NCBI GenBank assembly: GCA_964556975.1 | Contig: CAZKYQ010000002.1 | Location: forward strand, 1 to 58,555 | DNA from: an uncultured Ignavibacteria bacterium | Lineage (GTDB): Bacteria > Zixibacteria > MSB-5A5 > UBA10806 | DNA length: 58,555 bases | Direction: 5' to 3' | In this document: positions 4,888-50,027 of the stretch, piece by piece | Layout of the letters: every line of letters begins with the position of its first letter | Numbering within the stretch: position 1 is the stretch's first letter | The notes under the pieces: model-generated | The model's database searches: none | Seen by the model: only the letters and a program-made list of their open reading frames with translations | What the model was told of the DNA's origin: nothing | Translations under genes and position numbers: made by a program

Positions 4888-6213
4888 ATGGCTAATATAG
4901 ATATAAAAGAAAATATAACTTTATCTCAGAGTGATCTTGAGAAAAAAATATCTGATCTCGAGGACAATTTAGCCCAGCAGGCAAACAAGTTTACAGATAT
5001 TTCCAGGATTGGAACGGTAATAACCTCGATTTTTGATTTGGATCGAATATTGCCCATGGTTATGGAATCGGCATTGACACTCTCAAAAGCCGAAGTTGGG
5101 CAGATGATGGTATTCAACGATGATGGCTCTTTCGAGGACTCTGTCTGTTGGGGCATTTCGCAAGAGGTGACAAAACTAATTCAGAATAAGGACAATATGT
5201 GTCTTTGGGATTATATGAGAGCCAACGGGGAATGGCTGAAAATCGAGGATTTACGCGATAATCCCGACTGGGAATTGAAATCTGATAAAGCTCATATAAA
5301 ATCTCTAGTGGCCGCGCCGCTTTTTTCAAAAAAACGAATTGTAGGGGCCATTGCTATCGCTAATAAAATCGACGGAGATAATTTTACATCGGAGGACCTG
5401 TACATCCTGGAAATAATCGCTCGATACGCTACGGTTGCCGTTGAAAACAGCCATCTCCATGATGAAGCTCTTGAAATGCAAAAGCTTGAGGCCGATATTG
5501 ATATGGCCCGCCAGCTTCAAAGCATGATGATGCCTGAAAAAAGGATAGAATTCGATAGGTTGGAAATCAACGCCTATAATACGATGGCTAAACAAGTTGG
5601 CGGCGATTTTTATGATATTGTTCAATTATCCAGGAGTAAATATATCCTTATTATTGCCGATGTTTCAGATAAAGGATTCCCGGCATCGCTTCTAATGACT
5701 TCGTCGAGGAGCCTGCTAAGGGCTTATGCGATTGAAACCAGTTCCTTAAGTGAGATCATGGCCAATGTGAATGAACAGCTCTGCGGTGATTCCGGCGCCC
5801 TTAAGGGGATGTTTGTAACTTTGATTATGGTTTGTTTGGATTTCGAAAAGAATGAAATAAAAGCGGTAAACGCAGGGCATCCTCCGGGCTGGATCAGGTA
5901 TCCCGATGGCAAAATAACTGAGATGAAAACCGGGGGGCCTTTTGTGGGACAATTTTCGGGGCTTGAATACAAAGAACAAGTATTGCCGCTGGTTCCGGGC
6001 TCACGCATGTTTCTTTATACGGATGGAATTTTTGAGTGTGTCGATAATCAGGGAAATATGTTGGGCGTTTCAGGTATCAGATCATTTTTCGAGAATCATT
6101 TGAATGATACGCCGGAAGTGTTTGAAAGTGAAATTAAAAAACTAATGAAAGAATATTCGGTAGATCCTGAGAGAATAGATGATACAACCTATATCCTGGT
6201 GGATTTCAAATGA
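4888..6213 (+). CDS. GAF-domain PP2C-type (SpoIIE/RsbU-like) serine phosphatase
   Basis: 441 aa. The N-terminal half is GAF-like. The C-terminal half has the PPM/SpoIIE pattern (MARQLQSMMMP, VGGDFYD, ADVSDKG, LYTDGI). Confidence 0.85.
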   Translation: MANIDIKENITLSQSDLEKKISDLEDNLAQQANKFTDISRIGTVITSIFDLDRILPMVMESALTLSKAEVGQMMVFNDDGSFEDSVCWGISQEVTKLIQNKDNMCLWDYMRANGEWLKIEDLRDNPDWELKSDKAHIKSLVAAPLFSKKRIVGAIAIANKIDGDNFTSEDLYILEIIARYATVAVENSHLHDEALEMQKLEADIDMARQLQSMMMPEKRIEFDRLEINAYNTMAKQVGGDFYDIVQLSRSKYILIIADVSDKGFPASLLMTSSRSLLRAYAIETSSLSEIMANVNEQLCGDSGALKGMFVTLIMVCLDFEKNEIKAVNAGHPPGWIRYPDGKITEMKTGGPFVGQFSGLEYKEQVLPLVPGSRMFLYTDGIFECVDNQGNMLGVSGIRSFFENHLNDTPEVFESEIKKLMKEYSVDPERIDDTTYILVDFK

Positions 6214-6647
6214 ACAGATATTTCTTTTCATTCCCGAACACCGAAGAGGCGTTTAGAATATCTGATGATGTTTTCGGGCATGTTATTGATACGGTTGATG
6301 CCGATATCTCTGAACGCCAAAGAATGAAATTGATAGTTTCTGAACTGGTTATGAACGCGTATTTGCACGGTAATAAGTTTGATACTAAAAAGCGTATTGA
6401 AGTGGCTTTGGAAATAGATGCAAGCGATTTTATTGCCACAGTAAAGGACGAAGGGACGGGATTTACTAAACAGCGATTTAAAAATATGGTAGAGGCCATT
6501 TCAGATTTGGAGTCGGATTCCGGCCGCGGAATAAAAATTATCCACGAATTAAGCGATAAAATTAATGTATTTAAGGATGAAAAAGGTAAATTTTGCATTA
6601 GAGCTTTTAGGAAATTTAGAAAAAAACCGATTTTAATTAATGCATAA
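6210..6647 (+). CDS. RsbW/SpoIIAB-like anti-sigma factor serine kinase (HATPase_c)
   Basis: 145 aa. N-box SELVMNAYLHG, G1 DEGTGF, G2 GRGIKII. Its start overlaps the upstream stop codon by 4 nt. Confidence 0.8.
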   Translation: MNRYFFSFPNTEEAFRISDDVFGHVIDTVDADISERQRMKLIVSELVMNAYLHGNKFDTKKRIEVALEIDASDFIATVKDEGTGFTKQRFKNMVEAISDLESDSGRGIKIIHELSDKINVFKDEKGKFCIRAFRKFRKKPILINA

Positions 6648-7760: not shown

Positions 7761-9005
7761 TTGGATAAAATGGCAAAAAAAAAGAACGAACTGGAAGAGC
7801 TTGAAAAGCTCGCGGAATCTCTTACGGGCATGGGTGCCTTAACCCAATTAGTGCGCAATTCATATTCCCAATTAGAGTCTAAAATCGATGATGAAAACAC
7901 AAGGCTGGCACGAGTTAATGGCCTACTGCGCGAATCGCTTAACGAAAGAAACCGTCTCGCGAATTATCTAAACAGCATCCTTGAAAGCATTGACTCCGGA
8001 GCCATAGTAACCGGTAAAAACGGACGTATTAATATTTTTAATACTGCGGCTGAGAAATTTACCGGCATTTCTGCGGAATCGGCATTAGGAAAAAACTATT
8101 CTGATATAATGAAAAACTCAGCGTCGCCGGAGGCTGAGTTGATTATCAGGGGCGAATTGTCAAGCGCTTCTGGCGAAAAAACGCTCAACCCCCGGAAAGG
8201 AATTGATATTCCGGTGGCTTATTCTTTATCAAAACTCCGCAGGTTCGGCGAAGATGAAATGGAAGGAATGGTGGAAATTATTTACAATCTTTCCGAAACT
8301 AAGAAGCTCGAAAAGGAATTGAAGCATGTGTCGACCCTCGCCGCTTTGGGCGAAATGGCGGCTACGGTGGCGCATGAAATTAGAAATCCGCTGATGGGAA
8401 TTTCCGGGTATACGTCTCTTCTGGCCAGAGACCTGGAGGACGATAAGAAAAATCTCGATACTGTCTCGAAAATTTCAAAAGGAGTGAGGGCGCTCAACGC
8501 AATTGTAGGTAATCTTCTTGATTTTACAAAACCTATAAATCCCAACAAAATGGGAATAAACCCGATCTCTGTCATTGAGGAGACAATTGCCGAGTTTGAA
8601 GTGGATTCAGAATCGAAAAATCATACTTTTGAGATAGAATACAAGACAAGAAATCTTCATGCGGAACTTGACCCGGACCTTTTCAGGCAGATTGTTTACA
8701 ATCTTGCCAAAAACGCGGTTCAGACAAACCCGAATGGAGGGCGCGTAAAATTAATATTGAAAAAGCCGCCCCACGCCCATCTCACGCTTAATGTTGAGGA
8801 TGACGGTCCGGGGATTCCCGATGATATTAAGGAAAATATCTTCACCCCATTCTTCACTACAAAAACCAATGGAATCGGGCTGGGGCTTGCCACCGTTAAA
8901 AAATTAATAGAGCTTCAAGGCGGCAGTATTACAGCGGAGAACAAACCGGGTGGCGGCGCGGTTTTCACAGCCGATTTTCCCGGCGAAAAAGGAGACATCT
9001 TATGA
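7761..9005 (+). CDS. soluble PAS-domain sensor histidine kinase (FlgS/FleS-like)
   Basis: 414 aa with no TM segment. H-box [10 protein letters not shown]-box [10 protein letters not shown]1 DDGPGI, G2 GIGLGL. An alternative ATG start lies at 7770. Confidence 0.85.
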
Positions 9006-10360
9006 AGCCTAAAATACTCATTGTTGATGATGATGAATCAGTGAGGGGTTATATTTCTGACGCTTTGATTGGGATGGGCCATGCTCCGTTGGCCGCGCCG
9101 TCAGGGGAGATGGCTGTAGAATATCTTGAAAAAAGCGAATTTGATCTGGTAATAACCGATTTTAAAATGCCCGGTCTTTCCGGTATGGACGTTTTAAAAA
9201 AAGCATTAGATAACTGGCCGGATTGCGCGGTTATTATGATAACGGCGTATGGAACAATCGAACGCGCCGTCGAAGCCATGAAAATCGGCGCTCTCGATTA
9301 TATAACCAAACCAATAGGTCTTGATCACCTTGAAGTTATTATAAATAAAGCCCTCGATTATAAAGCCTTGAAAGTTGAGAACAGAATCCTAAAAAGCGAA
9401 TTAAGCGATAAATATTCCTTTGAAAATATTATCGGAAAAGCCGCCGTTATGAGAGATGTGTTCGAGCTTATTAGAAGGGCAAGCCCATCGGATTCAACTA
9501 TCCTGATTAATGGCGAATCCGGTACCGGTAAGGAGCTTGTAGCCAAGGCTATTCATTTCAATTCCGCGCGCTCGGGCAATCCATTCATTAAAATGAACTG
9601 CGCGGCGCTGCCTGAAGGCTTAATCGAATCAGAATTATTCGGACATGAAAAAGGCGCTTTCACGGGCGCTATACGGGCGAATAGAGGAAGGTTTGAAATG
9701 GCGAACAGGGGTACTCTTCTTTTGGATGAAATATCTGAAATACCGCCGGCCCTGCAGGCAAAACTATTAAGGGTCCTTCAAGAGAAAGAATTTGAACGCA
9801 TAGGCTCAGGCCAGACAATCAAGATTGATGTCCGGGTAATAGCCACATCAAATCGAGATCTAAAAGACGAAATAGCCAAAGGCAATTTCAGAGATGATCT
9901 GTTTTATAGGCTGAATGTCATCCCCATAGACTTGCCTCCATTGCGTCAAAGACTCGAGGATATTCCGCTTTTATGTGAACACTTCCTGAATAAATATTGC
10001 CAGAAAATGGGCTTGCCGAATAAAAGGCTTTCAAACAAAGTTAGCCAAATGCTCCTATCATACTCATGGCCGGGAAACGTGAGAGAACTTGAAAACATTA
10101 TTGAGCGCGCAGTAGTTATTTCAAAAAACCAGGAATTAAAGATCGGCGATTTCCCGCCGGACATGACCGCCGGTATTCCCGCGTTAAGCAAAACTAATAT
10201 GGATGTCGGAATGAGCATCGGCGATGCCGAAAAGATCCTTATCCTGAAGACCCTTAAAGCACATGGCGGCAATAAATCCAAAGCTGCGGATGTGCTTGGA
10301 ATATCGACCAGGACATTGCGCAATAAGCTTCACGAATACGGGCTTGCCGGCAGCGGCTAA
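9002..10360 (+). CDS. sigma54-dependent (NtrC-family) response regulator, FlgR/FleR-like
   Basis: 452 aa. REC domain (DFKMPG). AAA+ domain with GESGTGKE and GAFTGA. C-terminal Fis-type HTH (AADVLGISTRTLRNKL). Confidence 0.92.
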   Translation: MKPKILIVDDDESVRGYISDALIGMGHAPLAAPSGEMAVEYLEKSEFDLVITDFKMPGLSGMDVLKKALDNWPDCAVIMITAYGTIERAVEAMKIGALDYITKPIGLDHLEVIINKALDYKALKVENRILKSELSDKYSFENIIGKAAVMRDVFELIRRASPSDSTILINGESGTGKELVAKAIHFNSARSGNPFIKMNCAALPEGLIESELFGHEKGAFTGAIRANRGRFEMANRGTLLLDEISEIPPALQAKLLRVLQEKEFERIGSGQTIKIDVRVIATSNRDLKDEIAKGNFRDDLFYRLNVIPIDLPPLRQRLEDIPLLCEHFLNKYCQKMGLPNKRLSNKVSQMLLSYSWPGNVRELENIIERAVVISKNQELKIGDFPPDMTAGIPALSKTNMDVGMSIGDAEKILILKTLKAHGGNKSKAADVLGISTRTLRNKLHEYGLAGSG

Positions 10361-11206: not shown

Positions 11207-12012
11207 TATTCAGAAAACCAAAAGATGACGATGATCGAGAGAACCTCGAAAGGTGGCTTCTTACATACGCCGACCTGATGACTCTTTTACTCGCATTTTT
11301 TATAATTCTTTATTCAATATCACGCATTGATGCCGAGCAATTTGAAAATGTTTCCAGCGCTCTCCGGACAATATTACATGGAACGGCTGCGTCTTCGCTT
11401 CCCCATAAGACAATTATGATGGATGATCCCGGGGCCGGGCCCGTCAAAACAGGCGATCTGAATTATCTCAAGTCAAAGATTGAGAAAATATTGCTTGAAA
11501 AGGGACTTGCGGATAAAATTTCTGCGGAAATCGAAGATAGAGGGCTTGTAATTAGAATTTCCGAATCAACTTTTTTCGATCTGGGATCAGCCGATCTTAA
11601 GGAGCAGGCCAAAGGAATCCTCAATCTTTTTGGCGATATTATAAGTGATATACCTAATCATATTCGGATTGAAGGCCATACGGACAACCTTCCGATACAA
11701 AACTCCAAGTTTCCGTCAAACTGGGAGCTTTCAACAACCCGCGCGACCATTTGCATTAGATATTTAATCGAAAATTATGGTATGGTTCCTGATAGGGTTT
11801 CTGCTATGGGATACGGCGAGTATCGACCGGTGGCGGACAATAATAGCCCGGAAGGCCGCAGTATGAACAGGCGCGTTAATATCGTTGTGCTAAATTGGGA
11901 TGAAAAATACAAGGAACCGGCAATCAACCCCGAATATATTTCACAAAGCGTGGAAAAATATTCCGATTCAAATACCGGCCAAGAAACTATTGCTGCGGCT
12001 GTTCCTCAGTAA
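11203..12012 (+). CDS. motB: flagellar stator protein MotB (OmpA-like C-terminus)
   Basis: 269 aa. WLLTYADLMTLLLAFF contains the conserved Asp. OmpA-like region NWELSTTRA...NRRVNIVV. 4-nt overlap with motA. Confidence 0.92.
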   Translation: MIFRKPKDDDDRENLERWLLTYADLMTLLLAFFIILYSISRIDAEQFENVSSALRTILHGTAASSLPHKTIMMDDPGAGPVKTGDLNYLKSKIEKILLEKGLADKISAEIEDRGLVIRISESTFFDLGSADLKEQAKGILNLFGDIISDIPNHIRIEGHTDNLPIQNSKFPSNWELSTTRATICIRYLIENYGMVPDRVSAMGYGEYRPVADNNSPEGRSMNRRVNIVVLNWDEKYKEPAINPEYISQSVEKYSDSNTGQETIAAAVPQ

Positions 12013-12061: not shown

Positions 12062-12077
12062 TGGCATACCCTTTGCT
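12062..12077 (+). promoter_or_regulatory. sigma54-type promoter TGGCAT-N5-TTGCT upstream of flgB
   Basis: GG at 12063-12064 and GC at 12075-12076, with exactly 10 nt between. Followed by a GGAGG RBS (12090-12094) and an in-frame TTG at 12103. Confidence 0.65.
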
Positions 12078-13010: not shown

Positions 13011-13021
13011 GAGGATTGATT

Positions 13022-13309
13022 ATGAAAATTAATATTGTGTCAGGCGCCACTTACTATCCAACTAAAATAAATAAGAATATCAATCGGGCAGCCGAAGCGG
13101 GCGGTCAAAAGAATATAGAGCCAAATAAAATATCGAATTTTGAAAAAATCCTCTTTGATAAGTTAAACGCTGAAGAAGCGACTGAAATCCAAAAGCTTTT
13201 TGGCGATTTTCATATTGATGAAGCCGGAAAGAATTTTGGCAAGAATAATTCGTTTGCGGGTAAGCTGGGGGCGATACCGCGCGGAAAGTTTGTAGATATT
13301 AAAATATAA
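13022..13309 (+). CDS. hypothetical protein inserted between flgC and fliE
   Basis: 95 aa from the ATG at 13022 (AAGAGG RBS); the ORF is open from TTG 13016. Its stop TAA overlaps the fliE ATG (TAATG). I recognise no family. Confidence 0.6.
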   Translation: MKINIVSGATYYPTKINKNINRAAEAGGQKNIEPNKISNFEKILFDKLNAEEATEIQKLFGDFHIDEAGKNFGKNNSFAGKLGAIPRGKFVDIKI

Positions 13310-18288: not shown

Positions 18289-18753
18289 TTGAAGAAATTC
18301 CAATTCAGGCTTGAAAAGGTCCTTAGATATAAACGCCAGATTGAGGACCGCAAAAAACAGACGCTTTCCGAGCGCAATGCGGAATTAAATATCCAAAAAA
18401 ACTGTTTGCTTGAGTTACATGAACAAAAAGGCTTATATCAAAATAAATATTCATCACTATTTAAGGGGAAAATAAATGTTTACGGCTTGGTTTTCTCCGC
18501 GCGATTTCTTGACAAGCTGAATAAGAATATCCTTCATCAAAGTGATCTGGTAAAACACTCCGAGGAAAAATTGGAAAAAGCAAAGCTTGAACTCCGGGAA
18601 GCCATGCGCGACAGAAAAAAATATGAACGCATTAAAGAGAAAAGAAAGCTTGATCACGAATATGAAATGGGACGCGAAGAACAGAAGGAATTCGACGAAT
18701 TTGGGAGCAGAAAAAATCGGGTAAAATTAGCTATGGGCAATTGCCCGAAATAG
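18289..18753 (+). CDS. fliJ: flagellar export chaperone/stalk protein FliJ
   Basis: 154 aa, coiled-coil. N-terminus MKKFQFRLEKVLRYKR (TTG start). Canonical position after fliI. Confidence 0.85.
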   Translation: MKKFQFRLEKVLRYKRQIEDRKKQTLSERNAELNIQKNCLLELHEQKGLYQNKYSSLFKGKINVYGLVFSARFLDKLNKNILHQSDLVKHSEEKLEKAKLELREAMRDRKKYERIKEKRKLDHEYEMGREEQKEFDEFGSRKNRVKLAMGNCPK

Positions 18754-21196
18754 GGGCGTTTCCTCCCTTGAAATAGCCTACAAGATATGTAACATCAAGT
18801 CCGTTAACATCGCAGCTCCCATTCGCGTCGCCTCCAAGATAAGGGTTGGGCGGAGGCCCGGTGCCTTTAAAATAATCTACAAGATATATTACGTCGAGGC
18901 CATTTACATCGCCGGAGTTGTTAGCGTCTCCGGGAATGTAGGACTGGCTTGTGTCAACAACGGTCATGGTTTCTGCGAATTCATTTTGGTTTTCTCTATT
19001 ACCGGCATTGTCATGGCAAAGCGCTTCAAAATAATATGTATAGCCATGAATTCCTGTGAATTGTGACGATATATTGGTAAAGTCATCAAGCCATAAATTC
19101 CATACTCCGCCATTTTCCCTAAGATAAATATCGTATATGCCGGAAAGTCCAGAGCCGCCCGTATCGTTTCCTTCGCTCCAATAGACTGTGAATGTACTGC
19201 CGCTCGACGTATCGGGCGATGATGCGATGGACCCGGAGGGGTTTGTAGTGTCAAGATTTAATATTACTGATACCGCGTTGAGATGATCGGCGTTACCGGC
19301 ATTATCCTCAAGCCAAACATATAAAGGCATTCCGCCCTCAGTTGCAATATATATGGTTTGAGGCGGGTTTGAGCTGAATGAACCGCTGGTATCGAAAGGA
19401 GAAGCAGGCGCGGAGCCGAGCTTAAACAGAGCTTTTTGAATTCCGCTCGTATCGGAAGGGTTAGCCCAATTTATTGAAAAGATATGATTATTAGTCCAGG
19501 CGCTTGGATTTGAGCCGTTGGCTGTAAGATTAATCGGAGAAGGAGGGGGCGTCCCATCGATAATTACCGTCCATGTACCGGACCATCCCGACCACGCAGA
19601 GCCGTTACCCGCCCGAACCCGCCAGTAATACAAATTGTCAATTAGATCAGAGGTCGGCGTATACTGCGAAGCGGATAAATAATCGACATTGAAGCTTGGG
19701 GAAGAAAAATCCGGATTATTATCAATTTGAAAATGATAAACAGATGCCCCGCTGGAATTCGTAAAGTCAAAAAATGGCCGCCTATTATTGGTCAGGGCGC
19801 CATTAGCGGGCAGAATAAGAATCGGGGGAGACGGAGCATTGTTGACCGCAAGGTCCGCGGTCATGCTTATGCCGTTATTTGAAATATTCGTTATGGCAAC
19901 GTATGTATTCGCGAAATTATATGATTGCGAATTGGGGGTTGAGCTGTTATTGAACGCATGGTTATTTGTTGATCCCGGATAGGGGTCTCCGCCATCGCCG
20001 GAATTTGTGTCGTGCTCTAAATCCCAGTCGCCGTCGGCCTGCTCAAGAGCGACTTTATAATGTCCGGAAGATGTATGACCGGGATACCATTGGTTGTTGT
20101 TGCCCGATTGGTTTTCGTCAACATGATAAATCATTAAACCCTCGCTGGGAAGCTGTGAATCGAAACCGACCTGCTGGCGGTTTTCGGCGAGAAAATATTG
20201 CGGGCCTCCCTGGCTGTTCGTCCAAAGCCGATAGATTGTTGGCGTGTTTTCAACGGCGGGAAAAGACGCTCCTGTGATATTGCCGGCCACATTCACAGGC
20301 GTAGCGAAACCGAGAAAGGCTCTGGACCACGCGTCAAAATGCGCCGGAGAATTGCCCGCGCTCCCGTTCCAGCTTCCTCCGGCCATAACGCTCCAGCGGC
20401 CGAGGCCTCTAGAATCATATCCATAATCATAGAGGTCAGGCAGCCCGAATACATGGCCAAGTTCGTGAACGTACACTCCGCATGTCATATCATTCGGATT
20501 TACCCAGTATTCCGGCTCCATAGAATATCCGTTTACCCAGACGCCGTCAACATACGGATCATTATAGCACGACCAGGCATGCGACCAGATATCATTTACA
20601 TTACCGGTCCATTCCGCTCCCGGCCCGGCATGTATTATATATATCGCGTCGACTACTCCATCGTTGTCATTGTCGTATTGTGAAAAATCTACATAAGGGT
20701 TCGCCGCGTAAACCGCATCCTCAGCCAGCCTTTGCGCGTTATTAGGATAATTACCAAAGCCGTAATCAGCGCCAACATAATATGCGTATGTTTGCGGCAT
20801 TGTCCTCCATCCTATCGAAGACGGCAGGTTAACGGTTACTATATCCAATGTATAGTAAGAAACTTCATCATAGAAGCTCCATACCGTGTTTCCCGAATTC
20901 CCATAAATAAGATTGTCAAAATAAGTTCCGGAAACCTGATTGGCGTTGTCAGAAAACTCGACAAGGATGGCAAGCACGTTTATTGGGCCGCTTGGGTTGT
21001 CTAAGAGGGCTGGTTTTTGTGGAAGGCCCTGATTAATTCCCTTAATCTTGAAAAAAGTCGGATCTTTTATAAAGATAGGCAATTTAATCGCCTCGGCTTT
21101 GATCATATCCAATACCCGCTGGTGCGGGGGCATCGAATATGCTATTGCCGAAAGCAGGAATATTGTCCCAACGGAGAAGATTGCTTTTCTCATCAT
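18731..21196 (-). CDS. secreted M6-family (immune inhibitor A-like) metalloprotease with C-terminal dockerin-like double repeat
   Basis: HELGHVFGLPDLYD (HExxHxxGxPDxY). ILVEFSD N-terminal M6 pattern. Signal peptide MMRKAIFSVGTIFLLSAIAYS. The ORF is open to 21235 (TTG). C-terminus GDVNGLDVIYLVDYFKG / CDVNGLDVTYLVGYFKGG. Confidence 0.88.
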   Translation of the reverse strand: MMRKAIFSVGTIFLLSAIAYSMPPHQRVLDMIKAEAIKLPIFIKDPTFFKIKGINQGLPQKPALLDNPSGPINVLAILVEFSDNANQVSGTYFDNLIYGNSGNTVWSFYDEVSYYTLDIVTVNLPSSIGWRTMPQTYAYYVGADYGFGNYPNNAQRLAEDAVYAANPYVDFSQYDNDNDGVVDAIYIIHAGPGAEWTGNVNDIWSHAWSCYNDPYVDGVWVNGYSMEPEYWVNPNDMTCGVYVHELGHVFGLPDLYDYGYDSRGLGRWSVMAGGSWNGSAGNSPAHFDAWSRAFLGFATPVNVAGNITGASFPAVENTPTIYRLWTNSQGGPQYFLAENRQQVGFDSQLPSEGLMIYHVDENQSGNNNQWYPGHTSSGHYKVALEQADGDWDLEHDTNSGDGGDPYPGSTNNHAFNNSSTPNSQSYNFANTYVAITNISNNGISMTADLAVNNAPSPPILILPANGALTNNRRPFFDFTNSSGASVYHFQIDNNPDFSSPSFNVDYLSASQYTPTSDLIDNLYYWRVRAGNGSAWSGWSGTWTVIIDGTPPPSPINLTANGSNPSAWTNNHIFSINWANPSDTSGIQKALFKLGSAPASPFDTSGSFSSNPPQTIYIATEGGMPLYVWLEDNAGNADHLNAVSVILNLDTTNPSGSIASSPDTSSGSTFTVYWSEGNDTGGSGLSGIYDIYLRENGGVWNLWLDDFTNISSQFTGIHGYTYYFEALCHDNAGNRENQNEFAETMTVVDTSQSYIPGDANNSGDVNGLDVIYLVDYFKGTGPPPNPYLGGDANGSCDVNGLDVTYLVGYFKGGNAPISGNCP

Positions 21197-21287
21197 GTTC
21201 TTTTCTCTTTTCTTTTCAATTATCGGCATTAACAAAAATAAATCATTGAGTTCTATTGTGCAGAAAAAAGCATTTTAGCCTTCCCAA

Positions 21288-24200
21288 TTAACGTTTTTCA
21301 AGCTGAGCAGGTTTCTCTTTCGTTCTGTTCTCAATAGCAATCAAAACGCCCGGCGGACAATCCTGGCACGGAACGGGCGCAGCCCCTCCTTTAAAATAGG
21401 ATACGCCGTAGGTTACATCAAGTCCGTTGAAGCTGCAGCTATTATTGACATCGCCGGAAACATACCACGTATTGCCCGGCGTGCATTCGCATTCAAATAG
21501 CGGCGAAGCGCCCCCCTTAAAATATGCGACGCTGTATGTGATATCGAGACCATTGTAACTGTCGCTTCCGTTTACATCACCCGGTAAATAGACGCAAGCG
21601 CCTCCGGCTTCCATAATTTCCAGCGTAACCGGAACAACAACAAGCGGATCGGCCGGGTCGTTAGAGGCAAGATTGATTTGTCCTGTATATGTATCCGGCG
21701 TCAATGTAACCGCGTTAAGAGCCACCTGTGCTGTCAAACTATCTCCCGGAGGGATAGCATCCGCTGACGGATTAATAAACAACCAAACATTTAATAAAAC
21801 GGGGCTGGCATCCTTGTCAGAATTAGAAAGAATTGATGGTTGATTATTTTTTGCGCCATTAAGTGGCCATTGATCATCACCCAGCTTGCCAAGAATAGTG
21901 TTTTCTATCGCTTCCAGATGAAGATCCAGTATCGCGCTGCCCTGATTTCTAATTGTCAAATCAACAACTATCTGATTTCCTTCGGTAAGAGTTTCTGATA
22001 TGGAATCGCTGGCAACATCAATATCGGCCGCCAGCACGTTTAGCGTAACTGGCAAGTCAATAGTAGGATTAACGGGATCATTAGTTGCCGTAATAATCGA
22101 GTCAATATAAGCGCCCGCCAGAAGTCCTGAAGCGTTAATTGTTGCTTCTATGAGCAAACTATCGCCGGGAACAATATCAAAAGGTCCTGTGGGAATACTC
22201 AGCCATGATGCGGCTTCAGAGAATGCAACGGTCAAAATCGCAGTACCTGTATTTTTAACTTCAATCGTATCGACCTTTGAGCCGCCGCTTTCAAGGGTTT
22301 CGGTTATACTGGACGGCGTTTGGAGTATCTCCGCAGTCCCTCCCGTTCCGACATTTAATGTTACCGCAATATCGATTTGTGGTGTGCTGGGATCATTGGA
22401 ATCGAGATCAATATTGCCTGTATAATTTCCTTCGGGAAGATCGGTAGCGTCAAAAGTAATTGTAGCTGATGTTGAATCGTTCGGCGGAATAATACCGGAA
22501 TTTGGTGTTGCCGATAACCAGCTTCCGCTTTTTATTCGAATGCTCAGGTTGCTATGCATATAATCGGCATTGTAAACAATCCCAAGACCGTCCGATGCGT
22601 TCGAGTTTTCGATTCCTATTGTTGAAAGATTTAACTGATCAGTTCCGGGATCCATCGTTGCGTAATTTAATTCAATATCTCCATCTGGGTAAAGTATAGC
22701 CTGAAAATTCAGGTTGCCGCCGTAGCTCCAATTGGGAATTCCATCATAGCTGACTATAAACCTGTTATTAGCTGAATCCTGATAATACCTGATTGTGCCG
22801 CCAACCGCGGGGTTTAAATCATCCCACCAGGCAGAGATGAAATTATCCGGCGTGTTCGCTCCCGGAATAGGATCGTTGGAATAATCAGTTGAACCGGCGC
22901 CAAATGTCAACATGCCGTTGGAGCAAATATAAAGTTGTGTATAATTATTATCGTAAAATGGAAAACTGAAACCTATATTGATTGGACTGCTGTAATCATC
23001 ATCGTTAAGATTCACGGAAGTGCCGCTGCCTGAAATATCAACCCATGTCAACGGAGGACCGCTTGGCTCATCGGAATCGATCCATTCATGTCCAAATATG
23101 TCCGGCCCGCCCTGTCCCGTTATTACCGGTGCGTAAATCGGTTCCATTTCCAAATCCTGTTTGGATATTTCTTCCTTATAATACTTGATCGGTTTTCGCT
23201 CGCCGAAAGAAATGGTTACTGGTATTTTCGTCCCATTATCAAGCAAAAGATTATTGGTAGTTGTGCCCAAAGAGAAAACCAATGGGCCGTTGCCGATGTT
23301 GCCTATATCAAGATCACGAGTTTCTATGTTTCCCGGCGCTGTGTTTACGCTAAAGAATTGTGGAGAGTAAGAAATATCCGGAGGTTCCGGAGGTGTTGAG
23401 CCTATTACGACTACGTCATCAATATACCAGCCGGCATCCGTAACCGAAACGTCACTGCCGAATCGCCATTTAAACCGTACGGTTTCGCCATAGTACGAGG
23501 AAATATCAAATACCGCGAGGGCCCAATCCGATGATCCGGTGTAGCCAGGTTCGTTGTCAAGTCCGGTAACGGAATTATCCGGGTAATTGCCCACAGGAGT
23601 AAGTAGAGTCCATGACGAGCCGCCGTTTGTGCTGATTGAAACATTGCCGCCATCCCAGCCGCTTTCAATAGCATACCACTGGTAAAATTCCAGGCGGGCT
23701 ATGGGACTTGATATTACATAATCAATGCTATAAAGAGGGTCGTCAACACCATTATTATAATCATTATCCAAATCGGTTCCCCAGAGCCTGATACCCGACC
23801 AGGCGTTAGAAGGCCCTTGAGTTGCGGTTCCCCATTCCCATTCGCCGGAACCGTTGAATCCCCCATTTGAAGCCTCAAAAGATTCAGCGGGCTGCAAGGA
23901 AAAATCTAATTCATTTGTTTGCCCATATTGTATAAAGATACTATCCGATCCCTGGCTGTATCCTATTGCCTTTGCTTGCACAAGATACGATGATCCGGAA
24001 GGAACAGCGGGAAATTGATAAAATCCCTGAGCGTCTGTTGTTTCCGGAAGAATTGGAGTATTAAGAATTGTTATCTCCGCATTACCTATCGAATCGCCTG
24101 AAAGACTGGTTACGGTTCCCTGCAAGGCCGCCGAAGGGGCAGGGGAGAGTTGGAAATCTTGAAAAACGGTATCGTCTTGAGAGATTGTGATAAGTTGTTC

Positions 24201-25832
24201 TTGAGGCAGGTATCCAAAATAAGATGCCCTGATTGTGCGCGCTAATGAATCGGCGGGTGCTGACATGAAATAATATCCGGACGAATTTGCTTGCATAGAA
24301 CGGCTTTCACCTACAAGCTCGATTGTTGCGGGAAGAGGATTAGAATTTCCGGCATCCGTAATATTTCCTTCAACAAAGCCAAATCCGGTACTCGCCAAAA
24401 TAACGGCATCCAAAAGATTAATATTTCCATGCCCGTAATCGTTGTCCTCGCCAGCAGAACCAAGGTCTGTCGCCGTTTGCATTAAAATATCTTTTATCGT
24501 TTCGACATCAAGATTAGGGTTGACCTGTCTTAATATTGCCACCGATCCCGTAACATGGGGCGAGGCCATCGATGTTCCGCTCATAGTCGTATAGCCGCCG
24601 CCCGGAATTGACGAACGCACGCTTACGCCCGGGGCTACAACCTCCGGTTTTATAACAGTTTCGCCATTTGGCCCGCAATTGGAAGGCCCCCGCGATGAGA
24701 AGCTTGCTATTGGCAAAGATGGGTTAGCGCCGTCAACAGCCCCAACCGCAAAACAATTATAGGGCGTAGTACCGCGATCTGCCGGACGCCTTAGTCCCGA
24801 TGTACCTTCGTTTCCTGCAGAAAATACTACGACTGAACCCGCAAGTTCGACATTATCTATGACCGTCCAAAATGTTTGATCGCAAGGAGGATAGCCATGG
24901 CTTGTAGTTACGCCCCAGGAATTGCCGATGGCGTCGGGGTTATCTTGAGTATTTGGATTGCCGTCCGGATCAACAGCCCATTGAAAAGCAAGTATCGCGT
25001 CCGCGACTGTGCGTGGAATTCCTCCTCCTCTGTCGATTGCCGCGGCGGCTATCCATTGCGCTTCAATTGCGACGCCGATAGTATCGCCACCGGCGGAACG
25101 GCCGCAAATTGTTCCCATGGTATGAGTTCCGTGGGACCCGCCATCTTGAGGAAATATCCAATGCGTATCGTAAGGATCGTACCAGCTTTCGTCAACATCG
25201 CCGTCCCCGTCAACATCGCCCCTGAATCTTGAAGCGAGGGCCGGATGATTGCCGTCAACTCCGGTATCAATATTCATAACGACTCTTCCGGCTCCTGTCC
25301 AGCCTAACGCCCAAACTGCGGGAGCGTTGATCCGATCCAGTCCGATCTCCCTGCTTGCAATTAGGTTCCCCTCGTTTCCTTTTTTTACAGGCTCAATATT
25401 TTCGATCTCATAGTTATAAAAAAGTTCGGCTATATCTTCCCGACTTGCGGCGGCCAGAATTCCTTGTGTATTGGCTTCTATACTGAACATATTAGCGATC
25501 CAGAACATTTCATACTTTACTATTATGCCTTGATTCAAGAGGTTGTCTAAGTAATCGATAATTTCTGGTTGCGTGCGTGTCGCTGTTTTCTGTAGCTCAA
25601 GCACAACCCTCCTATTTCTTTCTGCCAGTGTTGCATTATTTGCCTTTAGTTCCGTATCTAATTTGAGCAAATCAGCTTGCTCTCTAATATAGGCTATAGC
25701 ATGAACAGTCTCATTTTCCGATAAGACATCAAGACGTGATTGCAAAAACGGGGCAATCGTCGCGGCAAATCCATTTGATATCGCCAAACAGCACATTAGA
25801 ATTGTAATTAATAATAATTTTGTCTTACTCAT
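21288..25832 (-). CDS. secreted subtilisin-like S8 serine protease, multidomain, with C-terminal dockerin-like double repeat
   Basis: Catalytic triad contexts DTGVDGNHPAL, HGTHTMG and GTSMASPHVTG. I9-like propeptide. Signal peptide MSKTKLLLITILMCCLAISNGFA. The ORF is open to 25892. C-terminus 2x GDVNGSxS(Y/F)NGLD(I/V)TY.V.YFKGG. Confidence 0.9.
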   Translation of the reverse strand: MSKTKLLLITILMCCLAISNGFAATIAPFLQSRLDVLSENETVHAIAYIREQADLLKLDTELKANNATLAERNRRVVLELQKTATRTQPEIIDYLDNLLNQGIIVKYEMFWIANMFSIEANTQGILAAASREDIAELFYNYEIENIEPVKKGNEGNLIASREIGLDRINAPAVWALGWTGAGRVVMNIDTGVDGNHPALASRFRGDVDGDGDVDESWYDPYDTHWIFPQDGGSHGTHTMGTICGRSAGGDTIGVAIEAQWIAAAAIDRGGGIPRTVADAILAFQWAVDPDGNPNTQDNPDAIGNSWGVTTSHGYPPCDQTFWTVIDNVELAGSVVVFSAGNEGTSGLRRPADRGTTPYNCFAVGAVDGANPSLPIASFSSRGPSNCGPNGETVIKPEVVAPGVSVRSSIPGGGYTTMSGTSMASPHVTGSVAILRQVNPNLDVETIKDILMQTATDLGSAGEDNDYGHGNINLLDAVILASTGFGFVEGNITDAGNSNPLPATIELVGESRSMQANSSGYYFMSAPADSLARTIRASYFGYLPQEQLITISQDDTVFQDFQLSPAPSAALQGTVTSLSGDSIGNAEITILNTPILPETTDAQGFYQFPAVPSGSSYLVQAKAIGYSQGSDSIFIQYGQTNELDFSLQPAESFEASNGGFNGSGEWEWGTATQGPSNAWSGIRLWGTDLDNDYNNGVDDPLYSIDYVISSPIARLEFYQWYAIESGWDGGNVSISTNGGSSWTLLTPVGNYPDNSVTGLDNEPGYTGSSDWALAVFDISSYYGETVRFKWRFGSDVSVTDAGWYIDDVVVIGSTPPEPPDISYSPQFFSVNTAPGNIETRDLDIGNIGNGPLVFSLGTTTNNLLLDNGTKIPVTISFGERKPIKYYKEEISKQDLEMEPIYAPVITGQGGPDIFGHEWIDSDEPSGPPLTWVDISGSGTSVNLNDDDYSSPINIGFSFPFYDNNYTQLYICSNGMLTFGAGSTDYSNDPIPGANTPDNFISAWWDDLNPAVGGTIRYYQDSANNRFIVSYDGIPNWSYGGNLNFQAILYPDGDIELNYATMDPGTDQLNLSTIGIENSNASDGLGIVYNADYMHSNLSIRIKSGSWLSATPNSGIIPPNDSTSATITFDATDLPEGNYTGNIDLDSNDPSTPQIDIAVTLNVGTGGTAEILQTPSSITETLESGGSKVDTIEVKNTGTAILTVAFSEAASWLSIPTGPFDIVPGDSLLIEATINASGLLAGAYIDSIITATNDPVNPTIDLPVTLNVLAADIDVASDSISETLTEGNQIVVDLTIRNQGSAILDLHLEAIENTILGKLGDDQWPLNGAKNNQPSILSNSDKDASPVLLNVWLFINPSADAIPPGDSLTAQVALNAVTLTPDTYTGQINLASNDPADPLVVVPVTLEIMEAGGACVYLPGDVNGSDSYNGLDITYSVAYFKGGASPLFECECTPGNTWYVSGDVNNSCSFNGLDVTYGVSYFKGGAAPVPCQDCPPGVLIAIENRTKEKPAQLEKR

Positions 25833-25964
25833 CACATTTCCCTTTCCCGAATGAAAGATATTTTGATTTAAATCGAAATTTCCGAATGACACAATTCGTA
25901 TAGAGTTCTTAAATTCTTAATCTGGCAACCTTATGAATTCCCCGGAATTATCTTTGCTCCTTTC

Positions 25965-25991
25965 CCGCCCGATGAGATAACGGCGGTTTTT
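25965..25991 (+). terminator. weak terminator-like hairpin in the divergent intergenic region
   Basis: CCGCC (25965-25969) pairs with GGCGG (25982-25986) across a 12-nt loop, followed by T5. The loop is large, so this is weak. Confidence 0.25.
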
Positions 25992-26186
25992 GCAGTCACT
26001 CAAGAAGCAGACATTTGAATTATAGCAAAGATTTTTCAAAAATCAAGAGATGAAGGAAAAAAATGCCTGCCAAAATGAAAATATTACCCCTTGCCGAAAA
26101 AAGTTATAATCAGTAATCAAAAGATCAGCTCCGAAAACCAATTGGCAAATAACGATTTACGCCCCCCTTTAGTTATTTGAATCTTT

Positions 26187-26202
26187 CGGCATACATGTTG
26201 CT
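26187..26202 (+). promoter_or_regulatory. sigma54-type promoter cGGCAT-N5-TTGCT upstream of the ylxF-like/fliK/flgD/flgE genes
   Basis: GG at 26188-26189 and GC at 26200-26201, 10 nt between. It lies 29 nt upstream of ATG 26231, which has an AGGAG RBS. Confidence 0.65.
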
Positions 26203-26230: not shown

Positions 26231-26752
26231 ATGTTTAAAATGATAGGACTAGGGGCACTTACATTGACTGGATTCATTGGTTACTCAATACTTTTCAGCT
26301 TTATTTTGGGTTTGCAACCTGTTGACGCTGTAAAGCTTGCGATTACCGGTCATCTTGAGACAAATCCTATGGAAATTTTTCAAACGGTTAAAGCCGAGAC
26401 GGATTCTCTGAATGCGGACATGAAAAGCCGCCTGAAGACAGTTCAAGACTCAGTTGCAATTGAATTGAGGAATATTAATACGGAAAAAACCGAACTGACC
26501 CAGTTACGTGATGAGATAAAAATTCTATTAGACGAAAAAAAGAAAATGGAGGACGCCAGCCTGTATAATCTCGCCAAAATTTATAATGATATGAACCCGG
26601 CACAATTGGCCAATATTATGATCGATCTTGATGACTCGGCAATAGTCGCAATATTGCCAAGAATGAAAAACCAAAAGGCAAGCAGAATACTTGAAATGCT
26701 TCCTCCTGACAGGGCGGCATCAATCTCGGCAATGTTATTGGGGAAAAAATAA
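26231..26752 (+). CDS. YlxF/MotE-like flagellar protein (MgtE_N-type domain)
   Basis: N-terminal TM segment, coiled coil, and C-terminal MNPAQLANIMIDLDDSAIVAILPRMKNQKASRILEMLPPDRAA. Same position as ylxF after fliJ in B. subtilis-type operons. The ORF is open from TTG 26177, which lies upstream of the sigma54 box. Confidence 0.7.
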   Translation: MFKMIGLGALTLTGFIGYSILFSFILGLQPVDAVKLAITGHLETNPMEIFQTVKAETDSLNADMKSRLKTVQDSVAIELRNINTEKTELTQLRDEIKILLDEKKKMEDASLYNLAKIYNDMNPAQLANIMIDLDDSAIVAILPRMKNQKASRILEMLPPDRAASISAMLLGKK

Positions 26753-35901: not shown

Positions 35902-36168
35902 ATGGAAACTCAATATATTGTAGATATTGCAAGAGAATCAATCTATACGGTTTTATTAGTTTCGGCGCCAATGCTGTGTCTTGCGCTTGTTGTCGGCTTA
36001 TCGATTTCTATCTTGCAGGCCGTCACACAAATACAGGAAATGACACTCACTTTTATACCCAAAATTGTAGCTGTCGCAATTGCGCTGGTTATTTTTTTGC
36101 CGTGGATGATTACCACAATTGTCAGTTTCGCGGGCGGTCTTTTTCAAATGATCCCCGGCCTTAGCTAA
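35902..36168 (+). CDS. fliQ: flagellar export apparatus protein FliQ
   Basis: 88 aa, two TM segments. LLVSAPMLCLALVVGLSISILQAVTQIQEMTLTFIPK. Confidence 0.95.
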   Translation: METQYIVDIARESIYTVLLVSAPMLCLALVVGLSISILQAVTQIQEMTLTFIPKIVAVAIALVIFLPWMITTIVSFAGGLFQMIPGLS

Positions 36169-36301
36169 GAGGGCATTTTTTTTACACTTACAGGGAATTA
36201 TTTTCCGGCCTCGGAGTTATTTTTTTAGTTTGTTACAGTCTTCACACCCATAACCTCTTAACAATCAAGAATATACGCGCATTCTATACTGACCGGCATG
36301 A

Positions 36302-36317
36302 CGGCATAAGCATTGCT
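36302..36317 (+). promoter_or_regulatory. sigma54-type promoter cGGCAT-N5-TTGCT upstream of fliR
   Basis: GG at 36303-36304 and GC at 36315-36316, 10 nt between. It sits in an unusual 178-nt fliQ-fliR gap, 30 nt upstream of the fliR ATG, with a GGAAGGA RBS. Confidence 0.55.
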
Positions 36318-36346: not shown

Positions 36347-37135
36347 ATGCCGATACTCGAAATTCAAACAATTCAATTTGAGACTTTTCTCTTTATTCTC
36401 CTCAGGGTAGGGGGAATAATGACAGTCGCGCCTCTTTTTGGCCATAAGAATATTCCTAAAACGGTAAAAATCGGTTTCATAAGTATTATATCGCTAATAC
36501 TTGTCCCAATTGTTCCCGCTCCGGAAATAGGATTATCCGCTGGGCTTGGTGAGATTTTCATCATAGCAGTCAAGGAAGTGTCTATGGGGCTTCTCTTGGG
36601 CTTTGTATCGAAAATCCTGTTCATGGGAGTCCAGATGGCTGGCCATTTGATGGGATTTCAAATGGGGTTTATGATTGCCCAGGTTATAGATCCCTCAAGC
36701 GGACAACAGGTATCCATAATAGGACAATTCAAATTTATTCTGGCTATTTTAATTTTCCTGGCTATCGACGGCCATCACATTCTAATCAACGCCGTCGTTG
36801 GGAGTTTCAATGTCGTTGCTATCGGAAAAATGGTTTTTACCGAAGCAAGCGCGAACCTGCTAATCAGGTCTTGCGTCGATATATTCCTGATAGCGGTCAA
36901 ATTGGGTTCGCCTGTTATCGTAACCTTGTTTCTTACTGACGTCGCTTTGGGCATCATTGCCCGCACCGTACCGCAAATGAATATATTCATAGTCGGATTT
37001 CCAATTAAGATCAGCGCGGGATTCTTGATCCTGGCCGTATCGTTTCCGTTTATCAGCTATCTCCTTATCAGGCTTATGAATCACATGGACACTGATTTGA
37101 CAAAACTAATGATTGCTCTTTCCGGGAGGATATAG
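36347..37135 (+). CDS. fliR: flagellar export apparatus protein FliR
   Basis: 262 aa, polytopic membrane protein. FLFILLRVGGIMTVAPLFG N-terminus. Confidence 0.93.
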   Translation: MPILEIQTIQFETFLFILLRVGGIMTVAPLFGHKNIPKTVKIGFISIISLILVPIVPAPEIGLSAGLGEIFIIAVKEVSMGLLLGFVSKILFMGVQMAGHLMGFQMGFMIAQVIDPSSGQQVSIIGQFKFILAILIFLAIDGHHILINAVVGSFNVVAIGKMVFTEASANLLIRSCVDIFLIAVKLGSPVIVTLFLTDVALGIIARTVPQMNIFIVGFPIKISAGFLILAVSFPFISYLLIRLMNHMDTDLTKLMIALSGRI

Positions 37136-42519: not shown

Positions 42520-43278
42520 ATGACAACATTAGAAGTGTGGGTAAAATATAAAGAAACTAATGATACCGAAACAAGAGATAAACTCCTCAACAATTACATA
42601 CCTCTGGTAAAGAATGTCGCCGGTCGGATGGCGGCCGGTTTTCCAAAATCGGTAGAATTAAATGATCTCGTAAACACTGGCGTTATAGGGTTGATTGAGG
42701 CGTTTAATAACTATGATCCCGGCCGGGGCGTAAAATTCGAGACATTCGCCGTGCCAAGAATAAGAGGAGCGATTCTTGATGAGCTGCGCATGCTTGATTG
42801 GGTGCCAAGGTCAACCAGGTCAAAAGCCAGGAATATAGACAGGGCCACAACCAAGCTGGAAAACAAATTGGGTAGGGGCGCTTCCAATAATGAAATTGCC
42901 AAATTACTTGACATCTCATTACATGATCTTTTTTCCGCGCAAAAAGACGTTTGCTTTTCGTCTTTAATCTCTCTCGACGATACGATCTGCCGCGAGGACG
43001 ATAATCGGCAGGTACCGAGAATTGAAACAGTACAAAACAAAGACACCGTAGATGTACTGGAAGTTATGGAAAAAACCGAGTTGAAATCGTTTCTGATGAG
43101 ATCCATAAGCGCGCTCACCGAACAGGAACGATTAGTTGTATCCCTCTATTATTATGAAGAGCTCACTCTTAAAGAAATTGGCGAAATCATGCTTATCTCT
43201 GAGTCAAGGGTTTCACAAATCCATACTCGAGCGGTAAGCCGCCTTAAAGGTTTGATCCGCGATAATTTTGCGATTTAA
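42520..43278 (+). CDS. fliA: flagellar sigma factor FliA (sigma28)
   Basis: Region 2 (NYIPLVKNVAGRM...DLVNTGVIGLIEAFNNYDP...FETFAVPRIRGAILD). Region 4 (LTLKEIGEIMLISESRVSQIHTRAV). The ORF is open from 42409 but overlaps flhG; ATG 42520 is preferred. Confidence 0.93.
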   Translation: MTTLEVWVKYKETNDTETRDKLLNNYIPLVKNVAGRMAAGFPKSVELNDLVNTGVIGLIEAFNNYDPGRGVKFETFAVPRIRGAILDELRMLDWVPRSTRSKARNIDRATTKLENKLGRGASNNEIAKLLDISLHDLFSAQKDVCFSSLISLDDTICREDDNRQVPRIETVQNKDTVDVLEVMEKTELKSFLMRSISALTEQERLVVSLYYYEELTLKEIGEIMLISESRVSQIHTRAVSRLKGLIRDNFAI

Positions 43279-43303
43279 TAAACATTAAAAACTGGAGCGT
43301 TTT

Positions 43304-43621
43304 GTGATGGAACGGGTGGAAATTAATAAGGACCTCACCCGCAGCGAACCAATCAGGGAAGTTCGACAGACAAAAGATACGCGCACCGGAGAAGCTACCA
43401 AGAAACAGTTCGTAGCGGAACTTGAAGAAAAGCTGGCCCGCAAAAAAAAGAAAAAACGGGAAAACAAGAAAGATGAAATTATCCTTCACGATAAGGATGA
43501 AAAAAAGAAGAATAAGACAGATTTTGAGGAAAAAGAAAAAAACAATGAAAAAAAGATTAATGGGCAGCATGTCCCTTCGCCTGATGGTTCAAAGGGAAAT
43601 GAGGTTGATTTCATTGCCTAA
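43304..43621 (+). CDS. hypothetical highly charged K/E-rich protein
   Basis: 105 aa, predicted disordered or low-complexity (KKKKKRENKKDE...). GTG start 26 nt after fliA. No family recognised. Confidence 0.5.
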   Translation: MMERVEINKDLTRSEPIREVRQTKDTRTGEATKKQFVAELEEKLARKKKKKRENKKDEIILHDKDEKKKNKTDFEEKEKNNEKKINGQHVPSPDGSKGNEVDFIA

Positions 43622-43633
43622 GCAGGAGGTATC

Positions 43634-44026
43634 ATGTTTGTAGAAGTTGCGGTTCTGACAATTTCCGTACTAAATATCGTAGTTGTCTCAACGCTTTTAA
43701 TTGTCTTGATGAGATATCTTAAAGCAAATAAAAACAGCTATGCCGCGTCGGACGACCGGGCCGAACAATATTATGGCGATTTGCTGGAGCGGATTAAAAG
43801 GATAGAAAAAGAAAATCCTTCAAAGGTATTGGCTAAATTTGAAAGCCGGGATCTGAATATTATCAACGCTGGAACCAACCGCATTAAATCAGCTGTCAAA
43901 AGACTTCGCGAGGGGAGCCTCCCGGATGAAGTCCGTCGGGAGTTTGGTTACTCACACTCTGAGATCGGGATCATCATGGCCTCTGCAGGATTAAAATCAG
44001 AATTGAATGACAATAAGTCCCTTTAG
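43634..44026 (+). CDS. hypothetical single-pass membrane protein (positional analogue of SwrB after the sigma28 gene)
   Basis: 130 aa. N-terminal TM segment (VAVLTISVLNIVVVSTLLIVLM). C-terminal HTH-like segment AVKRLREGSLPDEVRREFGYSHSEIGIIM. GGAGG RBS. Confidence 0.6.
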   Translation: MFVEVAVLTISVLNIVVVSTLLIVLMRYLKANKNSYAASDDRAEQYYGDLLERIKRIEKENPSKVLAKFESRDLNIINAGTNRIKSAVKRLREGSLPDEVRREFGYSHSEIGIIMASAGLKSELNDNKSL

Positions 44027-44048
44027 GAAATTGGGGTATTGCCGATAA
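44022..44048 (+). promoter_or_regulatory. sigma28-type promoter (perfect -10 GCCGATAA, weak -35 TTTA at N15)
   Basis: GCCGATAA at 44041-44048 in the 58-nt gap upstream of the DUF2225-like/PilZ operon. A GAAGAGG RBS and ATG 44085 follow. Confidence 0.55.
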
Positions 44049-44084
44049 ATAAAAATGAAAAAACAATCATAGAAGAGGCGGATA

Positions 44085-46567: not shown

Positions 46568-46693
46568 TAAAAAATAATGAGAGCAATTTCAGAAAGCGAA
46601 AGAATTAGCGCGTCGAAGAATCGTGCTTAAGTTTAAATTGGCCTAACGCCGTTATTTATGTCTGATTGCAGGCAAGGTTCTGGCGTTAAGTGA

Positions 46694-47551: not shown

Positions 47552-47574
47552 TCCGCGAAAGCGTTGACGACAGA

Positions 47575-50020: not shown

Positions 50021-50027
50021 TAATTGC

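Follow-up and report, generated by a model that had tools for sequence, protein, structure and literature searches.

The window analysed here is a 58,555-nucleotide stretch of contig CAZKYQ010000002.1 from an uncultured Ignavibacteria bacterium, placed in Zixibacteria by the GTDB taxonomy; among named relatives, its best FliI matches are to Candidatus Zixiibacteriota. In the middle of its flagellar gene cluster, two large protease genes lie antisense between fliJ and a ylxF-like gene. How did they come to be there, and do they have anything to do with motility? The original prediction held that they had been inserted into, or recruited to, a co-transcribed core operon, which they now split. 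Comparison with related loci, labelled L081–L091, points instead to an older arrangement, in which a two-gene protease unit (S8 then M6) is probably a long-standing, vertically inherited resident of a gap between separately promoted sigma-54 flagellar operons and most likely encodes extracellular or surface proteases.

Protease genes between two flagellar operons

The flagellar supercluster runs in the order PAS histidine kinase, sigma-54 activator response regulator, motAB, flgB–fliJ, the proteases, ylxF–fliK–flgD–flgE–fliLMNOPQ, fliR–flhBAF–fliA and flgFG...flgK, with the protease genes running against some 50 kb of genes on the + strand. Open reading frames (ORFs), exact motifs and domains were assigned from the sequence and from profile scans of the window proteins (Pfam and the TIGR/NF curated families). 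By these means fliJ (18289–18753, +; Pfam FliJ 1.6e-14; TIGR02473 72 bits against a cut-off of 50) is recognised as the terminal gene of the upstream flagellar operon, and a ylxF/flbB/flgY-like gene, a candidate member of the E-ring family (26231–26752, +), as the opening gene of the downstream one, in which fliK starts at 26752. Between them on the − strand, ORFs and family profiles bear out the predicted pair: an M6 (immune inhibitor A-like) metalloprotease gene at 18731–21196 and an S8 subtilase gene at 21288–25832. Their products, of 821 and 1514 aa, are identical to the database cluster representatives P0241 and P0121, respectively. The maximal ORFs extend to 18731–21235 and 21288–25892, with likely starts at the ATGs at 21196 and 25832; of the interval originally drawn, 18731–25892, the left end is retained, whereas the right end is moved inwards since the maximal S8 ORF reaches 25892 through an upstream GTG. 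The 91-bp spacer between the two genes (21197–21287) contains no terminator-like site, and S8 and M6 probably constitute one transcription unit, which would be read from a single sigma-70-type promoter upstream of S8.

The ylxF-like product gives weak matches to MgtE_N (24.4 bits, cut-off 25.9) and to FlbB (NF047368, 23.9 bits, cut-off 110), and the position of its gene upstream of fliK fits the FlbB/FlgY/MotE/YlxF family. Members of this E-ring family (COG3334) consist of a coiled coil followed by a C-terminal MgtE_N/ARM-like domain, with an N-terminal transmembrane segment or signal peptide, and occur in a flagellar context (PMC13023049). An exact-sequence look-up of the FliJ product returned no match, for which the choice of start codon is the probable cause.

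Whether the proteases interrupt an operon depends on what separates fliJ from ylxF. Exact GGCAY-N5-TTGCT motifs occur at four sites only in the window (12063, 26188, 36303 and 51159), all of them on the + strand, intergenic and just upstream of flagellar genes. The second, GGCATACATGTTGCT at 26188–26202, would serve the ylxF–fliK–flgD–flgE... operon and is the sigma-54 box that the original prediction had placed immediately after the proteases; 133 bp upstream of it lies a dyad, GGAAAAAAATGCC (26055–26067, +), a putative enhancer or upstream activating sequence. Together with an activator gene at 9002–10360 (+), whose FlrC/FleR-like product combines Response_reg, Sigma54_activat (237 bits) and HTH_8 domains, the −24 GG and −12 GC elements (TGGCAC-N5-TTGCW, 10-nt spacing) and the dyad give this site the sequence hallmarks of a sigma-54-dependent promoter. 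The flgB–fliJ operon is headed in the same manner by a dyad, GGAAAAATATTCC at 11952–11964, and a sigma-54 promoter, GGCATACCCTTTGCT at 12063–12077 (both +).

Both arrangements recur among ten Zixibacteria loci (L082–L091) retrieved through FliI homologues of 60–81% identity. All ten have a sigma-54 promoter and the dyad GGAAAAAAATTCC before flgB, mostly about 110 bp apart (90–111), and each of the eight loci that bear ylxF has a sigma-54 promoter before that gene with the dyad GGAAAAAAATWCC 124–134 bp upstream, the GGCA/TTGCT core being invariant across these eight genomes. The activator gene is likewise kept at the equivalent position in relatives, and its product is a candidate binder of the dyad sites. 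In L089 nothing is inserted: past fliJ come a strong hairpin and T-run, then 420 bp of spacer, the dyad, the promoter and ylxF; a strong bidirectional terminator also follows fliJ in L091. Since ylxF has its own sigma-54 promoter and dyad even in the insertion-free locus, the fliJ–ylxF junction is an inter-operon gap in this phylum. What the sequence holds here is thus not a single fla/che-type operon running from fliJ into ylxF, and the idea of a co-transcribed core operon split by the proteases is not sustained, whereas the accompanying proposal that the distal flagellar genes have a sigma-54 promoter of their own is extended to eight loci.

As a baseline, 80 FliI loci from other phyla (at most 60% identity) were compared. 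In the 52 that have flgD downstream of fliI, the two genes lie 1.7–4.5 kb apart (median 2.8 kb) and none has a large antisense ORF between them; the corresponding distance in the window is 10.25 kb. That none of these other-phylum loci is interrupted makes the occupied gap specific to this lineage.

Two observations on the promoters extend beyond the fliJ–ylxF gap. The dyad, of the form GGAA-N5-T(T/N)CC, recurs 90–134 bp upstream of flagellar sigma-54 promoters in the ten loci, and in the window at 11952–11964, 26055–26067 and 36194–36206. The last of these, GGAATTATTTTCC, lies 109 bp upstream of the sigma-54 motif at 36303–36317 (+), between fliQ (35902–36168) and fliR (36347–37135), and a promoter there would mean that fliPQR, export-gate genes usually transcribed together, form two units.

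Age and turnover of the genes in the gap

The contents of the gap differ from relative to relative. Both proteases are present, as in the window, in L086 (FliI 70% identical to that of the window), M6 alone in L082 (80%; complete genome CP070742.1), S8 alone in L083 (81%) and a single S8 of 2050 aa in L091 (61%). In L085 (72%) the gap contains a small ORF and two IPTL-CTERM-tagged products, one a shorter S8 and the other a protein of 983 aa; in L087 (72%) it contains genes for an exosortase of the EpsH family, for an XrtH-associated protein and for an IPTL-CTERM protein of 977 aa. L089 (61%) is empty, and in L088 and L090 the gene order after fliJ is rearranged. Where the proteases are shared, their divergence tracks that of FliI. 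The M6 of the window is 74% identical to that of L082 and 64.5% to that of L086, and its S8 71% to that of L083, 54% to that of L086 and 51% to that of L091, with which it is colinear over about 1400 aa; the FliI values for L082, L083, L086 and L091 are 80%, 81%, 70% and 61%, respectively.

A tree of FliF, FliG and FliI, with W for the window locus and the bracketing as given, reads (((L082,L083),W),(L085,L087)),(L086,L090)),(L089,L091)),L088. L082 and L083 are thus sisters (FliI 91%), and each has lost a different protease gene and retained a scar of the loss. In L083, about 25 nt of the 3′ end of M6 remain after the fliJ stop codon; in L082, M6 is now fused to the S8 promoter and to a remnant of its leader, about 80 nt long. 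The promoter-proximal part of the protease leader is homologous in the two. By this sequence comparison, the protease unit is evolutionarily labile. Occupation of the gap by S8 nevertheless appears to be a single ancient event, which we regard as likely, and S8 was probably already in the gap of the common ancestor of lineages whose flagellar core proteins are now about 57–61% identical. The simplest reading would further place M6 in the ancestor of the 66–80% clade and attribute the later changes in the gap to clean deletions and cassette replacement.

Three observations concern the variable loci themselves. The gap at L087 11930–16055 and L085 12486–18319 repeatedly carries sorted exoproteins or sorting machinery. 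The possibility that the IPTL-CTERM proteins of these two loci are fragments of the long S8 was rejected, as they have no significant similarity to it. In L090 (12140–13812), the place of ylxF after fliJ is taken by a cytochrome c gene and a recombinase of the XerC/phage-integrase family, so that the junction is also a rearrangement breakpoint.

Several points weigh against long vertical residence. When the N-terminal 720 aa are compared in a neighbour-joining tree, paralogues with type IX secretion system (T9SS) tails come between the S8 clade of the window, L083 and L086 and the clade of L091, a topology by which a single ancestral S8 at the gap is not proven; in the same tree, the S8 of L085 groups elsewhere. 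A close S8 homologue, P0130 (54%), adjoins dnaA/dnaN and not flagellar genes, and the sample comprises ten Zixibacteria loci only. The strand-symmetrised tetranucleotide deviation of 18731–25832 is 0.207, against a mean of 0.141 (standard deviation 0.026), a value reached by only 2 of 52 windows of 7.1 kb. This deviation probably reflects amino-acid composition, which is an argument rather than a test.

The same deviation, modest in size, could be read as the mark of a genomic island that had recently landed inside a flagellar operon, as could the antisense orientation of the proteases and the uninterrupted fliI–flgD interval of all 52 loci from other phyla. Other measures of composition do not follow suit. 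GC content at third codon positions (GC3) is 0.478 in M6 and 0.415 in S8, compared to 0.437 ± 0.040 in 48 other genes, and the synonymous codon-usage distance of both genes is as low as in other long genes. Their overall GC content is slightly higher because that at second positions (GC2) is 0.45–0.46, an effect of the amino-acid composition typical of secreted proteins; the raised-GC2 pattern is also found in FlgE and in a 977-aa protein encoded at the start of the window. Of the compositional comparison proposed at the outset, GC3 and codon usage therefore match the flanks, and the k-mer part alone deviates. No integrase or transposase ORF is present in the interval, which contains the two protease ORFs only; no direct or inverted repeats bracket it, no tRNA gene was found, and the window has no Rfam match. 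The view that this is not a classical mobile island is upheld: marker genes, repeats and tRNA are absent, GC3 and codon usage lie in the range of the host, and the pattern of presence in relatives is explained by orthologous inheritance with deletion scars. Protease genes at this position in distant relatives, combined with a composition like that of the flanks, are what the original prediction had named as arguing against a recent insertion. With orthologues at the same site down to 61–70% FliI identity, co-diverging with the flanking genes, with lineage-specific losses and with flank-like synonymous sites, insertion in any recent sense is effectively refuted by synteny and retains next to no probability.

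Elsewhere in the window, the stretch at 43000–51000, between fliA and the flgF operon, is the most tetranucleotide-deviant; it is AT-rich and carries DUF2225, YcgR-like PilZ and GAF/histidine-kinase genes.

The apparent split operon is thus better described as a phylum-specific boundary that has long housed exoprotein genes, a description that should help in annotating Zixibacteria flagellar loci and in avoiding false genomic-island calls.

Protease domains and a shared C-terminal module

Both proteins are ordinary members of known families. M6 scores 201 bits with TIGR03296 (cut-off 110.8) and 75 bits with PF05547 (cut-off 22), and its translation includes the motif HELGHVFGLPDLYD, in which the HEXXH zinc motif of peptidase family M6 takes the form HELGH. 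S8 scores 163 bits with PF00082 (cut-off 21.8), and the D (NIDTGVD), H (HGTHT) and S (GTSMASPH) motifs of the catalytic triad of peptidase family S8 are all found in its translation. The N-termini of the two (MMRKAIFSVGTIFLLSAIAYS... and MSKTKLLLITILMCCLAISNGFA...) look Sec-like when judged by eye, in agreement with the signal peptides originally proposed.

The families differ in breadth. In S8, the catalytic domain is followed by two CarboxypepD_reg domains, an InhA-like MAM domain, Ig-like domains and a dockerin-like module, and hundreds of homologues that share this architecture up to the C-terminal tag form a very large Zixibacteria paralogue family. Catalytic and middle domains are common to these paralogues, and C-terminal tags are interchangeable (dockerin-like, T9SS Por_Secre_tail or IPTL-CTERM). 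Orthologues that match M6 over its full length are restricted to a narrow group, about 22 clusters with 58–75% identity; outside it, similarity is confined to the catalytic domain and extends over many phyla. A search of metagenome contigs with M6 returned distant M6 proteins only (at most 49% identity) and no orthologues.

The two proteases have in common a C-terminal module (approximately 18734–18940 in M6 and 21291–21590 in S8), in which the segment GD(A/V)N-x-S-x-x-x-NGLD(V/I)TY-x-V-x-YFKG occurs twice. It is encoded by the only notable repeat, a 68-nt unit of which each gene carries two copies at its 3′ end. A profile built from 14 module sequences matched only type I dockerin chains in the PDB, with a best E of 8e-6, and in it the duplicated calcium-binding loop/helix of type I dockerins is recognisable; a single module sequence alone remained below the Pfam dockerin cut-off (19 against 22.9 bits). 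A third copy is found in the 977-aa protein mentioned above (1744–4677, +), a Cys-rich, secreted-looking product with a signal-peptide-like N-terminus and no Pfam match, whose dockerin-like C-terminus is a double module 69% identical to that of S8. As the tag also occurs on this unrelated protein, it is specific neither to the flagellar locus nor to the two proteases, and as far as its sequence indicates it is a device of general use in this organism for surface display or anchoring. Scanning of window proteins revealed no cohesin. Three dockerin-tagged proteins inside 58 kb hint at a cohesin–dockerin display system in Zixibacteria, and the presence of such tags on the two proteases and on a third nearby protein suggests surface display of the cohesin–dockerin style outside cellulolytic bacteria.

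With intact catalytic motifs, signal-peptide-like N-termini and dockerin-like C-termini, the proteases would digest protein extracellularly or at the cell surface, and most likely they are extracellular or surface-tethered enzymes for protein degradation and peptide acquisition, not flagellar parts. An accessory role, in which they would process flagellar, sheath or envelope proteins during assembly, draws its sole support from their persistent location inside the flagellar supercluster. One or both genes are missing from relatives with complete flagellar operons (L082, L083, L087 and L089), the S8 belongs to a large family found also away from flagellar genes, the same dockerin tag sits on an unrelated protein, and the gap of L085 and L087 is taken up by unrelated IPTL-CTERM proteins and an exosortase. 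We give this role very little credence.

Promoters, a possible motility link and known systems

Residence in the gap leaves a second question, that of whether the flagellar regulators reach the proteases. A minus-strand sigma-70-like promoter (26046..26019; TTGATT-16-TATAAT with TG) faces S8, and its position places a predicted 5′ leader of about 180 nt at 25833–26012. The promoter is conserved in the window, L082, L085, L086 and L087, is present in weaker form in L083 and L091 and has degraded only in L089, where the minus strand carries no gene. Its conservation does not depend on the gene downstream, be it S8, M6 or a small ORF with an IPTL-CTERM gene behind it. Its −35 box begins 9–12 bp from the dyad of the ylxF promoter (9 bp in the window), and the centre of the dyad lies about 49 bp upstream of the predicted protease start. 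An exact sigma-54 motif on the minus strand, towards the proteases, is absent from every locus examined. A sigma-28-like sequence, GCCGAAAA at 26093, was considered and dropped, as it is not conserved in relatives.

Divergently transcribed conserved pairs often share regulation, and the adjacency of dyad and promoter offers a plausible route by which a flagellar activator might affect protease transcription. According to one reading, an FlrC-like protein bound at the dyad would activate the ylxF promoter and also stimulate or occlude the protease promoter; this would be compatible with, and an addition to, the old vertically inherited protease unit. The conserved geometry of sigma-70 promoter, dyad and sigma-54 promoter, maintained whatever gene lies downstream and degraded on the protease side only where there is no minus-strand gene, speaks for such coupling, as do the recurrence of the dyad upstream of flgB in all ten genomes and the presence of the activator gene in the window. 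Against it, for each protease there is a lineage that has deleted it and kept the flagellar genes intact, the adjacency may reflect no more than a compact intergenic region, and the role of the dyad as a binding site is itself putative. We hold this coupling to be a tentative proposal, with the balance against it. The fuller version, in which a single enhancer is common to the protease promoter and the sigma-54 promoter of ylxF and a flagellar regulator switches the dockerin-displayed surface proteases with, or reciprocally to, flagellar assembly, would be somewhat less probable again and is on present evidence unlikely. If true, it would amount to a foraging switch, swim-and-digest or swim-versus-digest, that is hard-wired and conserved throughout a Zixibacteria order, and the back-to-back set of sigma-70 promoter, dyad and sigma-54 promoter would offer a concrete route for an uncultured protein-degrading lineage to couple motility with extracellular proteolysis. 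The locus was found in one DNA run, the source mat metagenome, and in no RNA run.

The other end of the protease unit suggests a different form of antagonism. The 3′ ends of fliJ and M6 converge and overlap, by 23 bp in the window (18731–18753) and by 20 bp in L082 and L086, and in none of these three is there an intrinsic terminator (hairpin and T-run) between the two genes. Read-through from fliJ would then cover M6 and S8 with antisense RNA, and read-through in the opposite direction would also occur, setting motility against protease production; that L091 and L089 have strong bidirectional terminators after fliJ speaks for this reading. Rho-dependent or weak terminators are possible, however, and a terminator scan showed no enrichment in either direction, so that such interference seems improbable. 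The overlap also holds a perfect 12-bp palindrome, GGGCAATTGCCC at 18735–18746, only partly conserved in L082 and L086, by virtue of which both proteins carry Gly-Asn-Cys-Pro at or beside the C-terminus (M6 ...GNCP, FliJ ...GNCPK).

In summary, despite their conspicuous position, the proteases appear as long-term occupants of an inter-operon gap, and only the back-to-back promoter/enhancer arrangement and the dockerin tags are worth pursuing.

Further observations concern other parts of the window. A GAF–SpoIIE (RsbU-like) phosphatase gene and a small ORF (6210–6647) occupy 4888–6647; a STAS (anti-sigma antagonist-like) gene just upstream in L081–L084 should correspond to this small ORF, in which case a partner-switching module would lie directly upstream of the flagellar two-component system. 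Between flgC and fliE, a 97-aa ORF without a Pfam match (13016–13309, +) has a counterpart of 85–110 aa at the same position in all ten Zixibacteria loci and is possibly an unrecognised flagellar component. L081, a microbial-mat contig (JGI 3300002231), is 99.84% identical to the window over 6959–28279, the differences amounting to 33 mismatches and 2 gaps. Frameshifts, from assembly or at the strain level, are suggested by its fliF, which is annotated as two genes, and by its M6, which is shorter by 13 aa.

Compared to fla operons of the B. subtilis or spirochaete type (fliI–fliJ–ylxF/flbB–fliK–flgD–flgE), the cluster has the same gene order but is cut into sigma-54 operons, each with an enhancer-like dyad, of which the fliJ–ylxF junction is one boundary; this division resembles the sigma-54 hierarchies of Vibrio, Pseudomonas or Campylobacter. 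Literature searches on peptidases, flagella or dockerins in Zixibacteria, and on proteases in sigma-54 flagellar clusters, found nothing relevant. M6 shares with InhA and other M6 peptidases the HEXXH catalytic domain and a secreted appearance, and differs from InhA in a long C-terminal extension closing in the type I dockerin-like module. S8 resembles bacillopeptidase F-like S8 proteases and its Zixibacteria paralogues in having a D/H/S catalytic domain followed by CarboxypepD_reg, MAM-like and Ig-like domains; what distinguishes it from the other Zixibacteria paralogues is the dockerin-like tag and a position fixed beside ylxF in several lineages. The modules themselves share with cellulosomal type I dockerins (PDB 4fl4, 6kg9 and 1ohz) two calcium-loop/helix repeats of about 22 residues, D-x-N-x-x-G-x-x-x-G-x-D, but are found on proteases, in a non-cellulolytic phylum, and have a conserved Cys and a C-x-D-C-P-P tail. 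In B. subtilis, the S8 protease gene epr is sigma-D dependent and needed for swarming. Like Epr, the S8 of the window is a subtilase possibly tied to a motility regulon; unlike it, the window proteases have on their side a sigma-70-like promoter, and none for a flagellar sigma factor was found there, so that any coupling would run through the neighbouring enhancer.

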